From Clostridia bacterium (GTDB taxonomy: Bacteria; Bacillota; Clostridia; Oscillospirales; CAG-272): a stretch of 64,000 nucleotides of DNA. Both the position numbers and the translations under genes were made by a program. The DNA is taken from contig JAFUIQ010000009.1 of the NCBI GenBank assembly GCA_017468385.1, forward strand, positions 68,614 to 132,613, in the 5' to 3' direction. Positions 3,110-27,263 of the stretch are shown piece by piece. The first letter of the stretch is position 1. Each line of letters begins with the position of its first letter. The notes below the pieces were generated by a model that was given only the letters and a program-made list of their open reading frames with translations, made no database searches and was not told the DNA's origin.

Positions 3110-5600
3110 ACGAATACAAAGGGCGAAAATCAACGCGGGATCCACTTTGCTCAGCCAGCTCGTCACTACGGCGGTCGGTGTGGTCATCCCGTGGATGATG
3201 ATCGGCCGATTTGGCTCGGAGGCATACGGCGCTACCACGTCCATCGCTCAGTTCTTGGCCTATATTGCGCTGTTTGAAGGCGGCATAGGCCGTGTGGCCA
3301 GAGGGGCGCTGTACGGACCTCTGGCGGCTGGCGATGAGGGGGAAATCAGCCGTATTTATCTGGCGGTAAAGCGATTCTTCTCCATCATCGGCGCGGCATT
3401 TTTGGGATATACGCTGCTCTTGGCGTTCTTTTATTATGACATCGCCGAGGTGACCGCTTTTTCGCGGGAGTATGTGTTTGGCCTTGTGATCGTCATCGCG
3501 ATCAGCAAATTCGCCGAATACATGTGGGGCATTTCCAACATCACCCTTTTCAACGCGGATCAGCGGCAATACGTGGTCAATTCGGTGACTATCCTGTCCA
3601 ATGTTCTGAATGTGATTGCGATTTCGCTTCTGATTTCATTCGGTGCGGATATCCTTTGGGTAAAACTGGCCAGCAGTCTGGTTTTCATTTTGAAGCCGGT
3701 CATATTTACCCTGTACCTGAAAACCCATTATTCCATCAAAAAATCCAAAACACGGGCGGTGCTGGCGAACAAAGCCACCGGTATTGCCCAGCATATGGCG
3801 TATGTGGTTCAAAATAATACGGATGTTCTGATCCTGACGGTGCTGGCCGATCTGAAAATGGTGGCGGTGTACTCCATCTATCATATGATTACCTTCAGCA
3901 TCCGGAACATCGTAACGTCCTTCACCGGCGGCATGGAAGCGGTCCTGGGCGAGATGATTGCCAAAGGGGAAGAGAAGGCGCTGTGGGCGGCGTACAAGCG
4001 GTACAAAATGCTGCTGAGCATCCTGGTCATTGCCTTTTTCGGTGCTACCGCCATCCTGATTGTGCCGTTTGTGAAGCTGTACACGTTCGGTGTGGCAGAC
4101 GTGGAGTATGCCCGTCCGGTATTTGCCATCCTGATCGTAATGGCGGAGGCCATGAATTGCCTGGTGCTGCCTTGCTTCAATCTGACCATTGCGGCCAACA
4201 AATTGAAAGAAAGCCAGATGGGCGCCTACAGCGAAGCCGCCATCAACGTGATTGTTTCCGTCGCGCTGGTGTTCTGGGATCCGCTGATCGGTGTTGCCTT
4301 GGGAACATTGGTGTCTACACTGGTGAAGTGCATTTTTTACATTGTTTTTTCCGGCAAGCATATTCTGCGGGCCAATGTGTCCCGTATGCTGCTCCGTTTC
4401 GCCGGCGTGATGGGTATTTTGCTGGGCGTTTCTGTCCTCGGAATCATAGGGATTCAGTACGTACCGGTGTACAACTACTGGAGATGGATCCCGGCCGGCT
4501 TCTGCACCTTTTTGATCACCCTGACACTCGGTGCGCTGTCCGGCTGCCTTCTGTATCCGGATATGGCACGGAAGATATCCCTGTTCCGCCGTAAGACGGA
4601 TGGTGGAATCAACCGGAGTGAAATGGCGGATGCAAAGGCGAGCGGCATGTATGAGCCGTACAGCGGCCATGATATTGCGGCCTATGCGGGATACGTAAAC
4701 GACCGCCGGGAACTGATGGAATGTTCCTCCGGTGGAGTGGCCACGGCATTGGCCCGAGCGGTGATCCGCCGAGGCGGATATGTGGCCGGTGTGAGATACA
4801 GCCGCGATTTTATGGAAGCCGAGTATGAGATCATCCATCGGGAAGAGGACATTCCCCGCTTCCGCGGCTCCAAGTATGTGGATGTCCGCAAGGGCAGCGT
4901 GTACAAGGATGTGCAGGCACTTCTGGACGCCGGAGAAACCGTGCTGTTCTTTGGATTGCCCTGCGTGGTGGCGGCCCTTCGTTCCTTTTTGGGACGGGAG
5001 TATGACCGTTTGATCGCGGTGGAACTCATATGCCACGGGCCCACGCTGCCTAAGGTGCATCGCCAGTATGTGGAATATTTGCAGAAGAAATATAACAGCC
5101 GCGTGGTGGACTTTTCCGTAAAGAAAAAGATGGACGCGTGGACACCGGGCTATCTTTATGCGGAATTTGAGAACGGACAGATCTTCCGGGAAGAGTTCTA
5201 TCACACCGAGTACGGATATGCGTTCAGCGTGCTGGCCAAAAAAGCGTGCTGCACCTGTTCCTTCCGCGGCAACAACCGCACCGGCGATCTGATGATCGGC
5301 GATTTCTGGGGCGCTGTGGAGGGGGATGCCTTCTGGAACAAAGACGGCGTGTCCTCTGTTCTGGTCCATACCGAGAAGGGAAGAGATTTGCTGTTGGCAG
5401 CGGAAGGGCTGCAGTTGTATCCGACCACCTTTGAGCGGATTGTCGAAAAGAATCCGAATGTGATCCACCCCCGCCGTGCCCGGCCGGAAACGGCGAAGTT
5501 TGAAAAACTCCTGGCAGAACATGATTTGTTCTATGCAGTCAAGCATTCCAAACGGTTAAAAACGCGACTGAAAGCGTTTGTGAAAACACTGCTGAAGTGA
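3102..5600 (+). CDS. Fusion protein: N-terminal multi-TM Wzx/MOP-type polysaccharide flippase-like domain (about aa 1-490) plus C-terminal FrhB/FdhB-like (coenzyme F420 hydrogenase beta-type) domain (about aa 520-832)
   Basis: About 12 hydrophobic segments lie in the first 490 aa. The C-terminal motifs CSSGGVATALA, FFGLPCVVAAL, ELICHGPT and CCTCSFRGNNRTGDLMIGDFWG are characteristic of FrhB_FdhB N/C domains. The start overlaps the upstream stop by 8 nt. Confidence 0.8.
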   Translation: MDKRIQRAKINAGSTLLSQLVTTAVGVVIPWMMIGRFGSEAYGATTSIAQFLAYIALFEGGIGRVARGALYGPLAAGDEGEISRIYLAVKRFFSIIGAAFLGYTLLLAFFYYDIAEVTAFSREYVFGLVIVIAISKFAEYMWGISNITLFNADQRQYVVNSVTILSNVLNVIAISLLISFGADILWVKLASSLVFILKPVIFTLYLKTHYSIKKSKTRAVLANKATGIAQHMAYVVQNNTDVLILTVLADLKMVAVYSIYHMITFSIRNIVTSFTGGMEAVLGEMIAKGEEKALWAAYKRYKMLLSILVIAFFGATAILIVPFVKLYTFGVADVEYARPVFAILIVMAEAMNCLVLPCFNLTIAANKLKESQMGAYSEAAINVIVSVALVFWDPLIGVALGTLVSTLVKCIFYIVFSGKHILRANVSRMLLRFAGVMGILLGVSVLGIIGIQYVPVYNYWRWIPAGFCTFLITLTLGALSGCLLYPDMARKISLFRRKTDGGINRSEMADAKASGMYEPYSGHDIAAYAGYVNDRRELMECSSGGVATALARAVIRRGGYVAGVRYSRDFMEAEYEIIHREEDIPRFRGSKYVDVRKGSVYKDVQALLDAGETVLFFGLPCVVAALRSFLGREYDRLIAVELICHGPTLPKVHRQYVEYLQKKYNSRVVDFSVKKKMDAWTPGYLYAEFENGQIFREEFYHTEYGYAFSVLAKKACCTCSFRGNNRTGDLMIGDFWGAVEGDAFWNKDGVSSVLVHTEKGRDLLLAAEGLQLYPTTFERIVEKNPNVIHPRRARPETAKFEKLLAEHDLFYAVKHSKRLKTRLKAFVKTLLK

Positions 5601-5614
5601 TTGCAGGCAAAACA

Positions 5615-5653
5615 AAAACTCCCCCTATGGGCAAAGCCCATAGGGGGAGTTTT
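5615..5653. terminator. Bidirectional terminator between convergent genes
   Basis: 17-bp stem aaaactccccctatggg / cccatagggggagtttt with an A-run and a T-run on either side. Confidence 0.75.
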
Positions 5654-5672
5654 ATGTATGAAGTATAGGCAA

Positions 5673-6206
5673 TCAGTAGTTTTCCTTGCGTACTTCGAAG
5701 AAGCTCTGGGGATGTACACATACGGGGCATACGCCGGGAGCCTTCTTGCCGATTACCAAATGTCCGCAGTTGCGGCATTCCCACATGGTCTCCTCCGCCT
5801 TCTCAAATACCTTCTGCATCTCAACGTTGTTCAGAAGAGCGCGATATCTCTCCTCGTGAGACTTCTCGATAGCGGCAACCATGCGGAAACGGGCAGCGAT
5901 GGCCTTAAATCCCTCTTCCTCTGCTTCCTTAGCGAAGGTGGCGTACATATCGGTCCACTCGTAGTTCTCGCCTTCAGCAGCAGCCTTCAGGTTGGCAGCG
6001 GTGTCGCCTAGCTCGCCCAGTTCCTTGAACCACATCTTTGCGTGTTCTTTTTCGTTGTTGGCGGTTGTTTCGAAGATGGCAGCGATCTGCTCAAAACCTT
6101 CTTTTCTTGCTACGGATGCAAAGTAGGTGTACTTATTTCTTGCCTGAGATTCGCCTGCAAATGCGGCCTGAAGATTTTTTTCGGTCTTGCTTCCCTTGAG
6201 TTCCAT
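5673..6206 (-). CDS. rbr: Rubrerythrin
   Basis: Diiron four-helix motifs ([39 protein letters not shown]) plus a C-terminal rubredoxin-like CRNCG...CPVC. Confidence 0.93.
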
Positions 6207-6239
6207 GTGTAGATCTCCTTTAAGTAATAATTTTTAATC

Positions 6240-6617
6240 TTATATGTTTGCCGCAGAAGCGCGGCACTTGGGACAGAGGTGATGCAGTGTCAGATCATAG
6301 GAGTCAATATTCTCCCCGGCATGATCGTGGAGGAATTGGTCAATTCCTTCGATGCGGATATCGCGGATCGCGCCGCAGGCAGAGCATACCATATGATCGT
6401 GGGGGACCAGCATCTTGTCGTATCGATCCGGCTGATCCGCAAAGGTGAGACGGGAGATGATCCCGTTATCGCTGAGATATTTCAGACTGTTGTACACGGT
6501 AGCGAGTGCAATGGTGGGCATCTGCTCTCTTGCGGCCAGATAGATCTCCTCCGCGCTCAGATGAGCATCGCTTCCGCGGACAATGGACAGAATCAGTTCG
6601 CGCTGCTTTGTCATCAT
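6240..6617 (-). CDS. Fur family transcriptional regulator (PerR-like), upstream of and co-oriented with rbr
   Basis: Winged-helix region ATVYNSLKYL, HDHMVC...CxxC (CSACG, CPKC) metal sites, and 34 nt of spacing to rbr. Confidence 0.85.
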   Translation of the reverse strand: MMTKQRELILSIVRGSDAHLSAEEIYLAAREQMPTIALATVYNSLKYLSDNGIISRLTFADQPDRYDKMLVPHDHMVCSACGAIRDIRIEGIDQFLHDHAGENIDSYDLTLHHLCPKCRASAANI

Positions 6618-6627
6618 GCACTCCTTT

Positions 6628-6648
6628 TTAGAATTGGAATAATTCTAA
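6628..6648. promoter_or_regulatory. Candidate Fur/PerR operator (inverted repeat) upstream of the regulator gene
   Basis: TTAGAATT-ggaat-AATTCTAA is a perfect 8-bp inverted repeat just upstream of the start codon. A related half-palindrome, ttagaataattc, lies at 6688-6699. Confidence 0.5.
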
Positions 6649-6711
6649 ATATATTATACACAGAGCAAAGCGCATTGTCAATAGTTTTTAGAATAATTCA
6701 AAAAAATATTT

Positions 6712-9516
6712 TTACGTTTCTGGTAGAGCGGTGCAGGGATCGGGCAGATAGGCCTCGGCCAGAATCCGATCGGACAGATCGAGATACACGGGCCGTTCTT
6801 CCTCCTCGGCGATGTAGCGAATCAGGGGAGAGAGGGCACGGCGGGCAGTTTCCAGATCCTTCAGCGGCGCGTTCTCCAATTCACCGTTGAACAGAATGCG
6901 ATGGATGTATTTCTTCTGCCGCTGGATTTTTTCAATAGAACCCAGCCGGGACAGCATCCGCACCCGACGGGTGAGGATGTCTTCCAGATCCTTGGTGTCC
7001 CCGCGCTCGGCCCGTGCCAGCATCAGCGTAAGCATCTGCTCGTCAAACAGCGCGGCGGCGGGAAGAGTGCCGTCCGGCAGCATCAGCGGTGCGATCTCCT
7101 GGCACAGGATCGTCATATCCCGGGGCGAGAGGGCTTCCATGGCCTCTGCCGTGCGGAAACGATCCACCGCACTCAGATGCCGGCGCACCGCAAAGCTTTC
7201 CCGATCCAATTCTCCGATCCGCCGAACCACATCCCGCACCAGTGTCTCGCGAAGCGGCGCGTCTGCCGCGTGATTCAGCCCCTGCAGGGCGGCAATCAGA
7301 TGCACTTTCCGCATAAACAGACGGATATGAATCGGCGGTACTTCCGCCGCGTCCGGGGAATCCCCGTAACAGAAAGCAGCGAAATTTCCGCACATGTCCA
7401 GCACGTGGAAGAATTCCTTCTCCGGGGCCCGCCGCATACCGCGGCCCAGCATCCGCCAGAATTTGGTGCGGGACGGCGCACGGGTGAAAAACACCAGATT
7501 TTCCACGCAGGGGATGTTCACGCCATCCGTCAGAAGATCGTGGGAGATGGCGATCTGGGGCATGGCGGCGGGATCGGCAAAATCCTCCACCAGCGAACGG
7601 GCGTAATTGGTGTCGGAATCGATGACGCGGCAGAAATGGGGCGGGGTGTCGGGGAACAGCTTGCTCCACATTTCGTAGATCATCTCCGAGTGGGCATGAT
7701 TCTTCGTGAATACAATGGTTTTGGCCAGCATCCCGGTCGTGGGATCCCGTCGGCCGCTGTCATGCAGAAGCGACAGCACCTTTTTCACCGTGTCTTCATT
7801 ATAATATTTGATAAACATATCTGCCGGGCGGATCACCGCCGGGACGTCCTCCGGGGCCGGGAAATGGCCGAGCAGTTCCCGCCGGTCGGCGGCGGACAGT
7901 GTATCCGTGATAAATCCCTCCGCGAAGGAGGTGAGATCCACCGCATGGGCCTCACAGGAGGCCAGCCATCCCTGGGCTACCGCGTCCCGCAAAGGAAAGG
8001 AGAACACAGGACGGCAGGAGACCGTGTCCAGAATATCGCACAAGGCGGGATCGATCTCTTCCTCCGGAACAGAGGTGAGCATCAGGCGGGGCGCATGGAA
8101 GGCGGCAAATACGGTTTCGTATTTCCGGGCCAGCGCTCCATCGGTTTCGTCGCAGATCACCAGATCGAAATGGCCCGCACTCAACAGGTGAATGCCATTC
8201 TCGTCGTGCAGATCGTCCGCTTCCGCCAGAACATCCTCAAAGGTGGCAAATACTACGCTGCTGTCGCCCGCCTTCGGCAGATTGGTGAGGGAGAGGGCGT
8301 CAATTCCACTGAGGGCGGCACATTCCGCCTGGGCCTGATCCGCGAGAAGATCGCTCTCCGTCAGAAACAGGATGTTCTTCGCCTGCCCGCATCGGATCAG
8401 CACCTCCGCTGCCGCCAGGGCGGTGAGGGTCTTGCCCGTGCCGGGGGCCATGGACAGAAATACATTCCGCTCCCGGCGGGTGCAGATGGCCTCGGTCACA
8501 GCGCGCACCGCATCCTTCTGATAGGGACGGTCGGCGATGCAGGAGAGGATGTCCTCCTCCCGGGGGATTCGTGCCGATCGGGCCATTGCCTCCACCCGCG
8601 CCAGATCCGATGGGGAATAGAATCCGCTGATGCGTGCCTCGGGGAGTTTGTCATCGAACCATACCCGCGTGTCAAATCCGTTGGTGAGGAAAATCACGGG
8701 GCGCACGCCGAAGCGGCGCTGCAGTCCGTCGGCATACAACTTTGCCTGCTGGCGGCCGATGGCGGGATCCGTTTCCGCGGACTGCGCCTCCACCAGAGCG
8801 ATGGGCGTTCCGCGATTATCGCACAGGACATAATCCGCATAGCCGACGCCGTTTTCCCCGGGCATCCCATCCACGCGGAATTCGCTGAAGCAGTCCGCGC
8901 CCATTTTCCAGCCCGCGTGAGCCAGGGCGGTTTCGATATACAACCGGCGGGTGTCCGCCTCGGAGAGCGGAGCGCGCTTCTTCGGCTCGGTATCTTTTTC
9001 GCGGGTGTTCAGAATCCGCTTCATCGTCCGGTTTTCCCGGATCAGTCGGCGGATGTCCGCGCTGTCCACCGCTTCCGTTACCAACTCCGCCTCGGGATCC
9101 AGAAGGGACAGATCGTATTCCTGCGAATGACGGCGGGAGCCGTACCGCTCCATCACAAAACAAGCCAAAGCATATAGGGAGCGCAGAGCCAGCTCGGCCT
9201 GCTCCCGGGTTACCGATTCCGGATTGTGGGCGGCGTTGTTGCCGGTCCGGCGGATATAATCCAGGGCGCGGCTCAACTCATGTCCCACCAGGGTGCGGAA
9301 CACGGTGGCACCGATCAGATTGGCCAGCTGATCCCGCCGGGGCTCGGGCAGGGCAGAGTCGGCGGCATACATCCATTTGACGGCCAGCTCCGCCGCACGG
9401 CGTACATTGACCACGCAGGCTGCCGTGTCAATGGCGTATATCTTTTCCGCCGCGGCACAGGCACCGGCGAAGGAGGAAAACTCCCCCCGGCTATACAAAA
9501 AATCGAAGTTGGTCAT
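6712..9516 (-). CDS. Orphan type I restriction HsdR-like / SF2 helicase with an N-terminal DUF4145-like domain
   Basis: DUF4145-like helical N-terminus (MTNFDFLYSRGEF...GNNAAHN). HsdR_N PD-(D/E)xK-type module (GYADYVL...LVEAQS...QQAKLYAD). Helicase motif I APGTGKT and motif II VICDETD. C-terminal EcoEI_R_C-like region. I moved the start to ATG 9516 (GGGGAGA SD) instead of the track start at 9621. Confidence 0.8.
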   Translation of the reverse strand: MTNFDFLYSRGEFSSFAGACAAAEKIYAIDTAACVVNVRRAAELAVKWMYAADSALPEPRRDQLANLIGATVFRTLVGHELSRALDYIRRTGNNAAHNPESVTREQAELALRSLYALACFVMERYGSRRHSQEYDLSLLDPEAELVTEAVDSADIRRLIRENRTMKRILNTREKDTEPKKRAPLSEADTRRLYIETALAHAGWKMGADCFSEFRVDGMPGENGVGYADYVLCDNRGTPIALVEAQSAETDPAIGRQQAKLYADGLQRRFGVRPVIFLTNGFDTRVWFDDKLPEARISGFYSPSDLARVEAMARSARIPREEDILSCIADRPYQKDAVRAVTEAICTRRERNVFLSMAPGTGKTLTALAAAEVLIRCGQAKNILFLTESDLLADQAQAECAALSGIDALSLTNLPKAGDSSVVFATFEDVLAEADDLHDENGIHLLSAGHFDLVICDETDGALARKYETVFAAFHAPRLMLTSVPEEEIDPALCDILDTVSCRPVFSFPLRDAVAQGWLASCEAHAVDLTSFAEGFITDTLSAADRRELLGHFPAPEDVPAVIRPADMFIKYYNEDTVKKVLSLLHDSGRRDPTTGMLAKTIVFTKNHAHSEMIYEMWSKLFPDTPPHFCRVIDSDTNYARSLVEDFADPAAMPQIAISHDLLTDGVNIPCVENLVFFTRAPSRTKFWRMLGRGMRRAPEKEFFHVLDMCGNFAAFCYGDSPDAAEVPPIHIRLFMRKVHLIAALQGLNHAADAPLRETLVRDVVRRIGELDRESFAVRRHLSAVDRFRTAEAMEALSPRDMTILCQEIAPLMLPDGTLPAAALFDEQMLTLMLARAERGDTKDLEDILTRRVRMLSRLGSIEKIQRQKKYIHRILFNGELENAPLKDLETARRALSPLIRYIAEEEERPVYLDLSDRILAEAYLPDPCTALPET

Positions 9517-21277: not shown

Positions 21278-21335
21278 TTGAATAAAATCGGGGAATGTGG
21301 TATACTTTTAGTACAAAGGGTTAGTGTATACTAAC
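21278..21335 (+). promoter_or_regulatory. pfl promoter and candidate operator palindrome
   Basis: TTGAAT - 17 nt - TATACT (21278-21306), then the near-perfect 16-bp palindrome GTTAGTGTATACTAAC (21320-21335) between the -10 element and the SD. Confidence 0.4.
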
Positions 21336-21369: not shown

Positions 21370-23481
21370 ATGCAAAAACAATACCCTTACGAAGGCTGGA
21401 GAGGCTTTGAAGGCGGTACGTGGGTGCGGGAAATCAATATCCGCAGCTTCATCCGCCATAACTATACACCCTACGACGGAGACGAAGCGTTTCTGGAGGG
21501 ACCGACACAGGATACACTGGATCTGTGGGCGCAGGTCATGGATCTGACCCGGCAGGAAAGAGAGGCCGGCGGTGTGCTGGATATGGACACCAAGATCATT
21601 TCCACCATCACCTCCCACGGCCCCGGTTATCTGAATAAAGATAAAGAGAAAATCGTGGGCTTCCAGACCGATAAGCCCTTCAAGCGCGCCATGATGCCCT
21701 ACGGCGGTATCCGTATGGCAGAGAAGGCTTGTGCGGACAACGGCTACACCATCGATCCCCAGGTGAAGGAGTTCTTCACCGTTCACCGCAAGACCCACAA
21801 TGCCGGCGTATTTGACGCCTATACCCCCGAGATGCGTGCCTGCCGTTCCAGCCACATCATCACCGGTCTGCCGGATGCCTACGGCCGCGGCCGTATCATC
21901 GGTGACTACCGCCGTGTGGCCCTGTACGGTGTGGATCGCCTGATTGAGGATAAGCAGGAGCAGAAGATCCGTACCCGTTCCGCCATGTATTCCGACGTGA
22001 TCCGCGACCGCGAGGAGCTCTCCGAGCAGATCCGCGCGCTGGAGGATCTGAAGAAGATGGCGGCCTCCTACGGCTACGATATCTCAAAGCCCGCTACCAA
22101 TACCAAGGAAGCGATCCAGTGGCTGTACTTCGGTTATCTGGCCGCGGTCAAGGAGCAGAACGGCGCCGCTATGAGCCTGGGCCGTACCTCCACCTTCCTG
22201 GATATCTATGCAGAGCGCGATCTGAAAGAGGGCACCTTTACCGAGCGTGAGCTGCAGGAGCTGGTGGACCACTTCATCATGAAACTGCGCCTGATCAAGT
22301 TCGCCCGTACTCCCGAGTACAACGCGCTGTTCTCCGGCGATCCCCAGTGGGTCACCGAGTCCATCGGCGGTGTGGGCATCTGCGGCCGTCACTTCGTGAC
22401 CAAGATGTCCTACCGGTATCTGCATACCCTGCACAACCTGGGTCCCGCACCCGAGCCGAATCTGACCGTTCTGTGGTCGGTGAATCTGCCCGAGAACTTC
22501 AAGCGCTTCTGCGCCAAGACGTCCATTGAGACCTCCTCCGTGCAGTACGAGAATGACGATCTGATGCGCTTCACCCACGGTGATGACTACGCCATCGCCT
22601 GCTGCGTGTCCTCCATGCGTATCGGCAAGGAGATGCAGTTCTTCGGCGCCCGCGCCAACCTGGCAAAATGCCTTTTGTACGCCATCAACGGCGGTGTGGA
22701 TGAGATCAGCGGCAAGCAGGTAGGTCCTCAGTACCGCCCCATCACCTCCGAATATCTGGATTACGACGAGGTTATGGCCCGCTACGACGATATGATGCGC
22801 TGGCTGGCCGGTGTGTATGTGAACACCTTGAACATCATCCACTATATGCACGATAAGTACTGCTACGAGAAGATCCAGATGGCACTGCACGATAAGAAGG
22901 TGACCCGCTGGTTCGCTACCGGTATCGCCGGCTTGTCCGTTGTGGCTGACTCTTTGTCCGCCATCAAGTACGCTAAGGTAAAAGTCATCCGTGACGAAAA
23001 GGGCCTGGCCGTGGATTACGAAGTGGAAGGCGACTTCCCCAAGTACGGCAACGACGACGACCGTGTGGATGATATCGCTTACGATATCGTGCACCGCTTC
23101 ATGGAGCACGTCCGCAAGAATCATACTTACCGCGATTCCATCCCCACCACATCCATTCTGACCATCACGTCCAATGTGGTGTACGGTAAGAATACCGGTT
23201 CCACCCCCGACGGACGTAAGCGCGGTGAGGCCTTCGCACCCGGTGCGAATCCCATGCATCGCCGTGATACCCACGGTGCGGTAGCTTCCATGGCATCCGT
23301 TGCCAAGCTGCCCTTCATCGATGCGCAGGACGGTATCTCCAACACCTTCTCCATCATCCCCGGTGCGCTGGGCAAGGATACGCAGGTGTTTGTGGGCGAT
23401 ATCGATGTGGATATCGATTGCGGCATGGGTGCCTGCAACGCTCCCACCCTGTTTGAAGGTCTGGATGACGACGACGAATAA
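21370..23481 (+). CDS. pflB: Formate C-acetyltransferase (pyruvate formate-lyase) large fragment, lacking the C-terminal glycyl-radical domain
   Basis: PFL-like along its whole length. The active-site IACCVS is present. It ends after ...[11 protein letters not shown] plus a 30-aa acidic tail. No RVSGYAV motif occurs in this ORF. ATG 21370 has a GGAGAG SD. Confidence 0.9.
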
Positions 23482-23506
23482 TCCCATTCCATAGGAGGAA
23501 TTTACA

Positions 23507-23749
23507 ATGGCTGTTAATGAGAATCAGGTAGACAATCTGGTGGCCCTGCTGGACGGTTATGTCAAAAAAGGCGGCCATCATCTGAACGTAAATGTGTTCA
23601 CCCGGGAAACCTTGCTGGACGCACAGAAGCATCCCGAGAACTATCCGCAGCTGACCATCCGCGTTAGCGGTTATGCGGTGAACTTTGTAAAGCTGACCAA
23701 GGAGCAGCAGGACGAGGTTATTTCCCGTACCTTCCACGAACAGATCTGA
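23507..23749 (+). CDS. Stand-alone glycyl-radical domain protein (GrcA/YfiD-like), corresponding to the missing PFL C-terminus
   Basis: NLVALLDGY...GGHHLNVNV...[31 protein letters not shown] carries the glycyl radical signature RVSGYAV. AGGAGG SD 7 nt upstream. The reading frame differs from the large ORF. Confidence 0.88.
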
Positions 23750-23750
23750 C

Positions 23751-24503
23751 ATGAACGCATACATTCATTCCACGGAAAGCTTCGGCGCTGTGGATGGCCC
23801 CGGTGTGCGGTTTGTGATTTTCTTTCAGGGATGTCCTATGCGCTGTCAGTACTGCCATAATCCGGATACCTGGAATATGCAGGGCGGGGACGTGCGGGAC
23901 GCCGCATCTCTTATCGAGGAGTATGAGCACAACCGCCCCTTCTATAAAAATGGCGGCATTACCGTCACCGGCGGCGAGCCTCTTCTGCAGATCGATTTTC
24001 TTCTGGAATTGTTCCGCTTGGCCAAGGAAAAAGATATCCATACCTGCATCGATACCTCCGGCGTCACCTATCATCCCGGCGATTCGGCGTACAACCGGAA
24101 ACTGGATGAGCTGATGACCATGACGGATCTGGTGATGCTGGATATCAAGCACATGGATCCGGCGGCACACAAAAAACTGACCGGCCATGACAATGAGGGC
24201 ATTCTGGCCTTCGCCCGTTATCTGGATGAGAAACAGATCCCCATCTGGATCCGCCATGTGGTGGTGCCCGGTGTAACCGATGACGAGGACGCACTGTTTC
24301 GGCTGGGTTGGTTCATCGGCGGGCTTTCCCATGTGAAAGCATTGGATGTACTGCCGTATCACGTGATGGGCGTGGCCAAGTATAAGGAACTGGGTATCCC
24401 CTATCCTCTCGATGGGGTGAAGCCGGCCACGAAAGAACAGGCGGCCCACGCGAAGCAGATCATTCTGAACGCGTACCGTCAGGCGCGTCAGGAGCAAAAA
24501 TAA
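23751..24503 (+). CDS. pflA: Pyruvate formate-lyase activating enzyme (radical SAM)
   Basis: GPGVRFVIFFQGCPMRCQYCHNPDTW contains the CxxxCxxC cluster motif. Starts 1 nt after the upstream stop. Confidence 0.93.
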   Translation: MNAYIHSTESFGAVDGPGVRFVIFFQGCPMRCQYCHNPDTWNMQGGDVRDAASLIEEYEHNRPFYKNGGITVTGGEPLLQIDFLLELFRLAKEKDIHTCIDTSGVTYHPGDSAYNRKLDELMTMTDLVMLDIKHMDPAAHKKLTGHDNEGILAFARYLDEKQIPIWIRHVVVPGVTDDEDALFRLGWFIGGLSHVKALDVLPYHVMGVAKYKELGIPYPLDGVKPATKEQAAHAKQIILNAYRQARQEQK

Positions 24504-24512
24504 ACGATTAAA

Positions 24513-24547
24513 GGGCTGCAGCCATGGGCTGCAGCTCTGTTTTGGTT
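24513..24547 (+). terminator. Terminator of the pfl operon
   Basis: gctgcagc-catgg-gctgcagc stem followed by tctgttttggttt. Confidence 0.6.
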
Positions 24548-24652
24548 TGGGAATAACTGGTGCGGGCGGATCGTTTACAAAATCCCCTTGCTATTGATCG
24601 CAAAAAATGCTACAATAATACAAAATATGCCTATCCTATAAGGAGATCATCC

Positions 24653-25456
24653 ATGGAAGAGAAACGTGAAACCGTGACCGCCCCCGAGGAAGAGCTGACT
24701 TCCGCTTCTGCCCGCATCATGCGCGGCCTGGGATTGGATAAGAAAACCGAGCCGGAGATTGAAGTGGAGCCGGTGGGCTTTTTTGAAAATTACTGGTACC
24801 ATCATAAGTGGAAAACCATCATCATCGGCGTGGCGCTTCTCATCGTTATGATCTGTACCGTGCAGATGTGCGCCAAGGAGACACCGGATGTGTACCTTAT
24901 GTATGCCGGTCCCGGCTTCCTTACCGCCAACGAGGCGCGGGAGGTGCAGAATTCCTTCCGCCAGATCATGGAGGATTACAATGAGGACGGCGAAAAGGGC
25001 GTGCTGCTGACCAGCATCAACTATCTGACCCAGGAACAGATCGATGAGAAACTGGCCATCGCTGAAAAAGAAGGCGTGGATCTGATCATCGACTACGGCG
25101 GAAACAACGACGCCTATGAGCGCTTCAGCCTGGAGGTCCTGGCCGGTGAGTCCGTGATTTGCATTCTGGATCCTTCGTTCTATGCCCAGCTGAAGGCATC
25201 GAATGGGCTGATGGAGCTGCAGGAGGTGCTGGATGAGGTGCCCCCGGAAGCCGTCGATGCATGCGGCGTCCGCTTCCGCGATACGGAGTTCTCCCGGTTC
25301 TTCACGGCTACCCATGTGTTCCCCGAGGATTCCATTCTGTGCATCCGTCGCGTGTCGGTCATGTCCGCCTTCAAGGGACAGGCGAAAACCGAGCGCGCCC
25401 ATGCGTACCATACGGAACTTTTTCGCGCTGTGATGGAATTTTCCATGCCTGAATGA
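24653..25456 (+). CDS. Membrane-anchored hypothetical protein
   Basis: AAGGAG SD before ATG 24653 (the track start at 24560 is unlikely). One TM (WKTIIIGVALLIVMICTV) followed by a soluble domain. Confidence 0.6.
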   Translation: MEEKRETVTAPEEELTSASARIMRGLGLDKKTEPEIEVEPVGFFENYWYHHKWKTIIIGVALLIVMICTVQMCAKETPDVYLMYAGPGFLTANEAREVQNSFRQIMEDYNEDGEKGVLLTSINYLTQEQIDEKLAIAEKEGVDLIIDYGGNNDAYERFSLEVLAGESVICILDPSFYAQLKASNGLMELQEVLDEVPPEAVDACGVRFRDTEFSRFFTATHVFPEDSILCIRRVSVMSAFKGQAKTERAHAYHTELFRAVMEFSMPE

Positions 25457-25698: not shown

Positions 25699-25848
25699 AT
25701 GAGAGTTAAGATCACTCTCGCCTGCAGCGAATGCAAGCAGCGCAACTACAATACCATGAAGAACAAGAAGAACGATCCGGATCGTCTTGAACTGAACAAG
25801 TATTGCCGCTTCTGCCACAAGCATACTCTCCACAAGGAATCCAAATAA
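25699..25848 (+). CDS. rpmG: 50S ribosomal protein L33 (not in the ORF track; 49 aa)
   Basis: My translation: [57 protein letters not shown] 8 nt upstream. Confidence 0.93.
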
Positions 25849-25868
25849 TTAGGTGAAGGAGAACAGCC

Positions 25869-26156
25869 ATGGCTGAAAACGAAAAGAAGGTCCCCGAAAC
25901 TGCGGAAGTTGCCGATAAGGAAACCAAGGCAGTAAAGAAGGACGCAAAAACCAAAAAGGAAAAGAAGTCCCCGCGCTTCATCGCCTGGCTCCGGACAACC
26001 AAGGCGGAGATGAAAAAAATCGCGTGGACTCCCAAGAAAACGGTGATCAGAAATACTACCATTTCTTTGGTGGGTATGATCGTGCTGGGCGCAGTAATCG
26101 CCCTGCTGGATTACGTTTTCTCCACCGCTTTCGGCGCCCTCAGCATGATTTTCTGA
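25869..26156 (+). CDS. secE: Preprotein translocase subunit SecE
   Basis: Lys-rich N-terminus, then FIAWLRTTKAEMKKIAWTPKKTVIRNT plus a single C-terminal TM. Conserved position before nusG. Confidence 0.9.
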   Translation: MAENEKKVPETAEVADKETKAVKKDAKTKKEKKSPRFIAWLRTTKAEMKKIAWTPKKTVIRNTTISLVGMIVLGAVIALLDYVFSTAFGALSMIF

Positions 26157-26169
26157 GGAGTGACGAGAC

Positions 26170-26721
26170 GTGAGCGATATCAATGAAATGAATGCCGGCC
26201 CCAGATGGTATGTAGCTCATACCTATTCCGGCTATGAAAACAAGGTTAAAATGAACCTTGAGAAAATCGTTGAGAACAGAGGCCTCGGCCATCTGATTTT
26301 CGACGTACGCGTTCCGGTTGAGACCATTGTGGAATCGGACGGAGGCGTAGAGCGCGAGATCGAAAGCAAAATCTTTCCGTCTTATGTGCTCGTAAAGATG
26401 GTCATGACAGACGAAAGCTGGCACGTTGTCCGCAATATCCGCGGTGTGACGGGCTTCGTCGGCCCGGGATCGAGACCCGTTCCCCTGACCGATGAAGAGG
26501 CTGCTGCCATTATCAAAGAGGATGTTACCGTTTCTACGGTTTCCACTCTCGCCGTTGGCGATATGGTGGATATCGTGGAGGGCATCTTCACCGGATACAG
26601 CGGCAAGCTCAGCGAGATCTCCCCGGATGGATCCGAGGTCACCGTTGTCGTGTCTACTGTCGGCCGTGATATGCCGATCAATCTGGACATCAAACATATC
26701 CGTCGCTCGGACAAGGTTTGA
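26170..26721 (+). CDS. nusG: Transcription termination/antitermination factor NusG
   Basis: RWYVAHTYSGYENKV (NGN domain) and a C-terminal KOW (VGDMVDIVEGIFTGYSGKL). GTG start; an alternative ATG lies at 26188. Confidence 0.93.
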   Translation: MSDINEMNAGPRWYVAHTYSGYENKVKMNLEKIVENRGLGHLIFDVRVPVETIVESDGGVEREIESKIFPSYVLVKMVMTDESWHVVRNIRGVTGFVGPGSRPVPLTDEEAAAIIKEDVTVSTVSTLAVGDMVDIVEGIFTGYSGKLSEISPDGSEVTVVVSTVGRDMPINLDIKHIRRSDKV

Positions 26722-26837
26722 TTCCGGTAAAATAATCGGGAGCCGGCATCCCGGGTAAACCGAATTGCCGGATCGTGGGAGGAAGAAAATTTTTCTTACA
26801 TTCTTCCGTCATAAACCACATATGGAGGATTTCTTTT

Positions 26838-27263
26838 ATGGCAAAGAAAATCGTTGGTTACGTTAAACTCCAGCTGCAGGCGGGTAAAGCTACCCCCGCT
26901 CCGCCGGTTGGTCCTGCGCTCAGCCAGTATGGTATCGCAATTCCCAACTTCACCAAGGAATTCAACGAGCGCACCAAGAATGATATCGGTTTGATCATTC
27001 CCGTTGTTATCACTGTATACGCAGACCGTTCTTTCACGTTCATCACCAAGACTCCGCCGGCAGCCGTTCTGATCAAGAAGGCTTGCGGCATCGAGACCGC
27101 TTCTGCTACCCCCAACAAGACCAAGGTTGCTAAGCTGACCCTGGAGCAGGTTAAGCAGATCGCTGAGACCAAGATGCCTGACTTGAACGCAGCATCCCTG
27201 GAAGCAGCTATGAGCATGGTGAAGGGCACCGCCCGTTCCATGGGTATCACGGTGGAAGAGTAA
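26838..27263 (+). CDS. rplK: 50S ribosomal protein L11
   Basis: [33 protein letters not shown] is canonical L11. GGAGG SD. The track start at 26775 is rejected. Confidence 0.95.

Follow-up and report, generated by a model that had tools for sequence, protein, structure and literature searches.

We analyzed a 64,000-nucleotide (nt) stretch of DNA from a Clostridia bacterium of the order Oscillospirales (GenBank assembly GCA_017468385.1, contig JAFUIQ010000009.1, positions 68,614 to 132,613 of the forward strand), hereafter the window, which carries an operon for pyruvate formate-lyase (PFL). PFL is the most widespread glycyl radical enzyme (GRE) and, in the Clostridia of gut and rumen, performs a central step of fermentation. 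The textbook picture is of a single-chain PFL, joined by an emergency spare part in facultative anaerobes only. At this locus the RVSGYAV glycyl-radical loop is not on the large PFL polypeptide; it sits on a separate open reading frame (ORF) of 80 amino acids (aa), and the gene for the cognate activase, a radical S-adenosylmethionine (SAM) enzyme that scores above the cut-off of the PFLA model TIGR02493, adjoins.

The two ORFs match PFL in complementary parts. The large ORF matched PF02901 with 752.8 bits and passed the PFL equivalog TIGR01255 on its own (1106.9 bits vs. a cut-off of 994.2); it covered profile positions 2-668 of 744, and positions 663-743 were matched by the small ORF. The Pfam profile Gly_radical (PF01228) was divided in the same manner, with positions 1-51 of 106 in the large ORF and 50-106 of 106 in the small ORF. 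Identity to E. coli PflB was 64% over the core plus the small ORF, and the break fell at about PflB residue 680/681, the small ORF aligning to PflB 681-757. In the alignment, C411 and C412 of the large ORF correspond to C418 and C419 of E. coli PflB, G55 of the small ORF corresponds to G734, and the substrate arginines R176 and R435 are kept as R175 and R428 of the large ORF. The small ORF is a full-length match to the NCBIfam family NF038360, GrcA3 (167.9 bits, cut-off 158, positions 1-78 of 78), and stays below the cut-off of the GrcA/YfiD equivalog TIGR04365 (95.3 vs. 170 bits). It aligns to residues 68-126 of GrcA, with only 19 residues preceding the aligned region, and its sequence has no cysteine.

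A first-pass annotation, made from the letters alone, had taken the small ORF for the missing part of PFL, and the complementary split of the Pfam and NCBIfam profiles bears this out. The Cys-Cys site that it saw in the large ORF is the aligned catalytic pair. When the coordinates were re-read, the 25-nt gap, the AGGAGG, the 80-aa ORF in another frame and pflA 1 nt further on were all found as described; the large ORF does start at ATG 21370, and its length is 703 aa, the 704 aa given earlier having counted the stop codon. The features are collected in Table 1.

Table 1. Features of the split PFL operon (window coordinates).
Feature	Position	Strand	Details
Promoter-like site upstream of the operon	21278-21306	+	TTGAAT-17-TATACT with TG; consensus scan only
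Large PFL ORF	21370-23481	+	ATG 21370, TAA 23479-23481; 703 aa
Catalytic Cys411-Cys412 of the large ORF	22600-22605	+	IACCVS motif; = E. coli C418-C419
Conserved acidic Cys-pair tail of the large ORF	23377-23478	+	Cys codons 23419-23421 and 23434-23436
Intergenic gap, large/small ORF			25 nt
Shine-Dalgarno (SD) sequence of the small subunit	23493-23498	+	AGGAGG, 8 nt before ATG 23507
Small ORF, glycyl-radical subunit, GrcA3 family	23507-23749	+	80 aa, stop TGA
Gly55 codon of the small ORF	23669-23671	+	RVSGYAV motif
pflA, PFL-activating enzyme, radical SAM	23751-24503	+	250 aa; TIGR02493 301.8 bits, cut-off 231.75
Terminator-like hairpin	24512-24548	+	12 bp, 8 GC, then T-tract; strong hairpin at 24512-24538; consensus scan only

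The large ORF, the small ORF and pflA lie in three different reading frames, and the ATG of pflA follows the small-ORF stop by 1 nt. The promoter-like site and the terminator-like hairpin flank this three-gene unit as consensus matches only, and promoter-like sites in the region were not more frequent than expected from shuffled sequence. Many gene callers use an alternative start of the large ORF, TTG 21340 (713 aa), as in the cluster representative P0367; the N-termini of homologues favor ATG 21370. Rfam and tRNA scans of the window gave nothing relevant to the operon. Downstream, one hypothetical gene (24560-25456) separates the operon from a rpmG-secE-nusG-rplK cluster at 25699-27263.

Conservation of the split

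Relatives of the small ORF were found in at least 595 species genomes in a scan that used one genome per species, and the best 80 of these loci were read closely. A free-standing ORF of about 80 aa was present in 78 of the 80 loci; the other two carried a normal fused PFL. Wherever the gene upstream of the free-standing small ORF was readable, it was a truncated PFL (69/69), and an SD-like sequence preceded 79 of the 80 small ORFs. The carriers belong to Oscillospiraceae, Acutalibacteraceae, Ruminococcus, Lachnospiraceae and Erysipelotrichaceae, and split carriers include the isolates Ruminococcus YE71, Beduini massiliensis (Erysipelotrichaceae) and Sellimonas caecigallum (Lachnospiraceae, complete genome). 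In an independent metagenome assembly (L081), the large subunit was 98% identical and the gene order, namely the large ORF (704 aa), the 80-aa ORF, pflA, a hypothetical gene, rpmG, secE, nusG, rplK and rplA, was that of the window. The survey of related PFL loci thus recovered the layout of the first-pass annotation in an independent assembly and in hundreds of species, and the split is not peculiar to the assembly in which it was noticed.

The protein records agree with this. The exact window proteins are in GenBank as MBQ7939158.1 ('formate C-acetyltransferase') and MBQ7939159.1 ('autonomous glycyl radical cofactor GrcA') and were found on several contigs, the exact 80-aa sequence on 206 contigs. 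The small ORF as a protein query found more than 120 clusters; almost all of them were exactly 80 aa long and 86-99% identical, and some were on hundreds of contigs. Among the best 120 protein clusters of large-ORF homologues, none contained the radical domain and 118 were 698-716 aa long; the two longer ones (P0153 and P0162, 805 and 821 aa) are artefacts with internal tandem duplications from assembly and not fusions. Small public 'proteins' (P0359, P0362 and P0363) include chimeras in which unrelated N-termini are joined to the PFL tail. Both ORFs are under purifying selection, the ratio of nonsynonymous to synonymous substitution rates (dN/dS) against the window being 0.067 for the small ORF and 0.081 for the core of the large ORF, with dS saturated.

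Given that split genes in metagenome-assembled genomes are often artefacts, and that some related records do carry assembly duplications (P0153 and P0162), we considered whether one continuous pflB has been broken by an indel, either through a sequencing or assembly error or as a recent pseudogene. We give this practically no credence. The junction differs from canonical pflB by an insertion of about 120-130 nt, made up of the conserved coding tail, a stop, an SD sequence and a start, with no frameshift, and the identical layout recurs in the independent assembly, in isolates and in hundreds of species. The genome scan, the truncated-PFL context, the large-ORF clusters and the independent assembly refute this explanation. 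It is also very improbable that the two ORFs are joined in one chain by programmed frameshifting, readthrough or split-intein trans-splicing, although they are adjacent, in different frames, and the tail has Cys. In two-gene loci the intergenic spacing runs from a 17-nt overlap through 3 nt to a 120-nt gap with no conservation of frame, whereas the SD sequence and the ATG are conserved, and in the window a TAG in the small-ORF frame stands 12 nt upstream of its ATG, past the large-ORF stop; recoding is therefore excluded. As to trans-splicing, a Pfam search of the window ORFs for an intein/Hint domain gave no match, and the 9 residues before the conserved GrcA3 helix, in a protein with no Cys, are too few for a C-intein. 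Collectively, these sequence comparisons strongly support that the two-piece architecture is a real, selected and widespread state. They bear out part of the first-pass reading, whose further elements, an obligate pairing, an exchangeable radical module that would be cheap to repair after oxygen hits and a docking role of the tail, are conjectural.

A cysteine-pair tail and a third ORF

The large ORF ends in what the first-pass annotation called an unrelated acidic tail. Acidic it is, with 10 D/E, no K/R and an isoelectric point of 4.05, but unrelated it is not: when its conservation was checked, the motif D[DN]x[IV]F[AVM]GD[IL][DE][VI][DE][LI]..., which includes PTLFEGLD and is followed by acidic residues, was present in 133 of 135 truncated homologues. 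The tail Cys pair is near-invariant, with a spacing of 2-4 residues, and the dN/dS of the tail was 0.13-0.20 in two comparisons with saturated dS. Of 69 split loci, 65 have the Cys-pair module, in fused or third-ORF form (see below); none of the 117 fused relatives has it, and their linker has no Cys. That the module goes strictly with the split state is the chief reason for believing that it works in the trans arrangement. Two split loci, L050 and L054, have tails without the module (...AGDALNVDGMKLD and ...GDLDIDALAK, respectively) and their close relative L055 has it; some lineages may thus do without the module or have lost it recently.

No other home was found for the tail. The 34-aa tail searched against 1.84 billion representative proteins gave 7 hits, all of them C-terminal fragments of truncated PFLs or chimeric gene calls, so that its motif was not found in any other protein context among these proteins, and the tail profile had no match in PDB, Pfam or NCBIfam. 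Its alternating hydrophobic and acidic residues look like the pattern of an amphipathic strand. The hint from the MAFFT alignment that the tail is a degenerate copy of the Gly loop was rejected, as hhalign found no similarity between the window tail and GrcA3.

In approximately a quarter of the related loci (L032, L033, L037, L045, L047, L051, L057, L058, L060, L061, L063, L066-L070, L072, L077 and L080), the large ORF ends earlier, at ...GDLDI[DE]..., and a third ORF of about 70-85 aa, around locus positions 3700-4000, precedes GrcA3. By hhalign, this third ORF is homologous to GrcA3 in its N-terminal half, over the first helix and strand of the latter (90.5%, E 1.3e-6), and to the window tail in its C-terminal half (96.6%, E 5.7e-10), where it has the same Cys-pair/PT motif and acidic end. 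The third-ORF profile has no family of its own in Pfam or NCBIfam and no PDB match, and gave weak GrcA3 and Gly_radical hits only. In some loci the third ORF has no obvious ATG or overlaps the end of the large ORF in another frame, and it is interrupted in L070 and L080.

A probable two-polypeptide enzyme and rival explanations

From the gene architecture, its conservation, the purifying selection and the residue equivalences, we consider it probable that the operon encodes a working PFL made of two polypeptides, with the radical generated on the small one. In such an enzyme, the 703-aa subunit would form the PFL barrel with Cys411-Cys412 and the substrate arginines, and four elements would be missing from it: the last helix, strand beta10, the Gly loop and the C-terminal helix. 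GrcA3 (80 aa), which has an SD sequence and an ATG to itself, would supply them; they correspond to E. coli residues 681-759. PflA would abstract the H atom of GrcA3 Gly55, and from the docked GrcA3 the radical would travel to Cys412 and Cys411 along the canonical PFL route. We infer that the two subunits assemble into the active enzyme and that this large subunit obtains its radical from GrcA3 alone. Damage by O2, namely cleavage at the radical glycine, would then be repairable by swapping the 80-aa piece, and exchange after such cleavage would be the selective advantage of the design. In E. coli, PFL(1-695) with YfiD shows wild-type-like activity once activated (PMC8683613), and PflB-G734A is rescued by GrcA in vivo (PMC12338860).

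Several points weigh against this interpretation. The two-piece enzyme is predicted from sequence. The check for a second pflB covered the 64-kb window, in which no second PFL or radical domain was found; the pairing may be obligate. Truncated E. coli PFL binds YfiD poorly and its activation is 32-fold lower (PMC8683613), so that efficient assembly here would need further features. Moreover, O2 also yields sulfinyl and peroxyl species in PFL (PMC13450708), for which reason replacement of the small subunit may not restore a damaged large subunit. An AlphaFold2 model of the concatenated large and small subunits was poor (mean predicted local distance difference test score 57.6, tail <50) and does not inform the packing of the tail or of GrcA3; its 42-row alignment was too shallow, because every homologue used was at least 75% identical, MAFFT also set the tail against the first helix of the fused relatives, and the model was used only as a PDB query.

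GrcA3 could instead be a spare part for an intact PFL encoded elsewhere, the truncated large ORF being a decaying remnant or having some other role. The naming in NCBIfam and GenBank ('autonomous glycyl radical cofactor', model name 'rad_fix') points this way, E. coli GrcA and T4 Y06I act so, and an intact pflB would have been noticed only if it lay within the 64 kb. A decaying remnant, however, is hard to reconcile with a truncated large subunit that purifying selection constrains as strongly as it does the small ORF, that exceeds the cut-off of the PFL equivalog and that has a conserved tail of its own. It lies upstream of GrcA3 in every readable split locus, the best 80 loci are all from different genomes, and the window holds no second PFL. 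We regard the spare-part explanation as quite unlikely. A rival that keeps the same architecture supposes that it was selected for easier activation or regulation and not for O2 repair. PflA reaches the glycine of intact PFL only once the glycyl radical domain, which is buried, has opened outward; a free 80-aa domain would be within reach of PflA as it stands, and the tail or third ORF would act as a placeholder, filling or shielding the empty site before the radical subunit arrives. The need for this opening, the placeholder-like copy of the N-terminal helix and strand of the radical domain in the third ORF, and the prevalence of strict gut and rumen anaerobes among the carriers all speak for selection on activation. 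Yet the window tail has no detectable similarity to GrcA3, transient O2 does reach gut and rumen anaerobes, and the arguments for it are indirect. We consider selection on activation possible but doubtful.

In a two-polypeptide PFL, the acidic Cys-pair tail would help to recruit, retain or gate the separate radical subunit, a reading based on its restriction to split forms. In E. coli, recognition is mediated by residues 696-733 of the cleaved PFL and the disordered N-terminus of YfiD (PMC8683613). Since the natural system has neither the PFL 696-733 remnant nor the disordered YfiD N-terminus, we propose that the tail is a functional substitute for these segments. A disulfide tether between the tail and GrcA3 is impossible, as judged from the sequence, because GrcA3 has no cysteine. 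More speculatively, the Cys-pair module might be an undescribed GRE accessory element, a redox- or metal-sensitive latch that gates how a diffusible radical subunit is loaded, retained, released or quenched, in which case PFL would be a three-module machine with a regulated, exchangeable radical cofactor.

Evolution and comparison with known systems

A neighbor-joining tree of 655-aa PFL cores was rooted with E. coli PflB and bootstrapped 60 times. Fused PFLs of the Lachnospiraceae type fell within the split forms, which were monophyletic in 0/60 bootstraps; the fused clade was recovered in 60/60 and was sister to one split clade in 53/60. These fused PFLs (L040, L062 and P0241-P0358) are 741-747 aa long, and their radical domains are 83-87% identical to the window small ORF. 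One old split followed by re-fusion is tentatively the most economical reading, because the tail module is shared across split clades, and repeated splitting is the alternative; the reading is tentative since it depends on a single distant outgroup and neighbor joining.

Relatives of the radical subunit also occur in other settings. Ten viral contigs (IMG/VR, L083-L092), several of them 100-330 kb long, carry free-standing GrcA3-like genes of 77-82 aa that are 72-83% identical (for instance at L088 4992-5225, L084 4989-5225 and L086 4998-5231), and no PFL large subunit lies near these genes on the ten contigs. In L088 the gene is flanked on one side by a 729-aa ORF with an N-terminus that we read by eye as nrdD-like, and on the other by a 169-aa ORF that weakly matches the window PflA and has an NrdG-like N-terminus. 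The viral genes recall T4 Y06I, and phages may supply the radical subunit to the split PFLs of their hosts. Separately, a second, different GRE (5147-7690) lies about 150 nt past the expected end of pflA in the split-PFL operon of L027; it is an 847-aa, PFL2/dehydratase-like protein with a VRVAGYS loop and its own intact radical domain.

The full-text literature searched, from which most subscription papers are absent, contained no description of a natural split PFL, and spare-part proteins are all that a glycyl radical enzyme review of June 2026 mentions in this respect (PMC13450708). The first-pass annotation nevertheless overstated the implied novelty of the small ORF, which belongs to a curated NCBIfam family, GrcA3, and whose exact protein is annotated as GrcA in GenBank. 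The name GrcA3 occurred in no paper of the searchable literature. Databases already have names for the components, and structural work on them is evidently under way; relative to the literature searched, what appears to be new is the reading of a PFL built as standard from two pieces, sometimes three, with a Cys-pair module dedicated to it. If this is correct, hundreds of species representatives share a design of body plus separate radical subunit, and thousands of 'GrcA' and 'formate C-acetyltransferase' entries would be the two halves of one enzyme. The operon would also offer a natural system for the docking, activation and exchange of a glycyl radical domain, with hints of how oxygen hits might be made less costly to strict anaerobes.

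The closest solved chains in PDB, both labeled 'Formate acetyltransferase', are 38la (687 aa) and 38lb (739 aa), with 1145 and 1172 bits. The small ORF finds no match in either, which indicates that both are without the radical domain. Chain 38la ends at about ALGK, and 38lb runs past ALGK with ...SGNVMFGECDMCEMKELD..., also a Cys pair, its Cys-containing continuation reading ...FGECDMCEMKELD.... The tail of 38lb differs in sequence from that of the window, as the PTLFEGLD profile finds no match in it. These entries, compared here as sequences, suggest a naturally truncated PFL solved with and without a tail, and they must be recent, because they are absent from a structure set ending 2026-04-08.

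The operon resembles E. coli PflB with GrcA (YfiD), and phage T4 Y06I, in that a small free-standing RVSGYAV protein, activated by PflA, would carry the radical in trans to the PFL Cys pair. In E. coli, however, PflB is a full-length chain of 759 aa and GrcA acts only after damage or mutation, whereas the large chain here never has a radical domain; the partner of GrcA/YfiD is a full-length PFL cleaved by O2, and the cis partner here is genetically truncated. Unlike E. coli PflB, the window large chain bears the Cys-pair tail. GrcA has a disordered N-terminal half of about 60 aa that is needed for binding, whereas the 80-aa window protein starts at the equivalent of PflB 681 and is without such a half. 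Among named families the likeness is to NF038360, of which the small ORF is a full-length member and whose relatives are annotated as GrcA3 or GrcA in GenBank; the family name implies a repair part, and no mention of a truncated partner PFL or of its tail was found with it. The engineered pair of tPFL 1-695 and YfiD (Andorfer et al. 2021, PMC8683613) is likewise an active combination of a PFL body and a separate radical domain. That pair is artificial, with undetectable binding in addition to its lowered activation, whereas the natural cut lies about 15 residues earlier and adds a conserved tail.

The division of labor between the subunits also sets the operon apart from other assemblies. Multi-subunit GREs such as benzylsuccinate synthase (alpha-beta-gamma) and 4-hydroxyphenylacetate decarboxylase combine a large catalytic subunit with small Cys-rich accessory subunits. 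Multi-subunit glycyl radical enzymes are covered in the review cited above (PMC13450708). In these two enzymes the radical glycine belongs to the large subunit, with Fe-S clusters bound by the small ones, whereas in the split PFL the radical glycine is on the small subunit.

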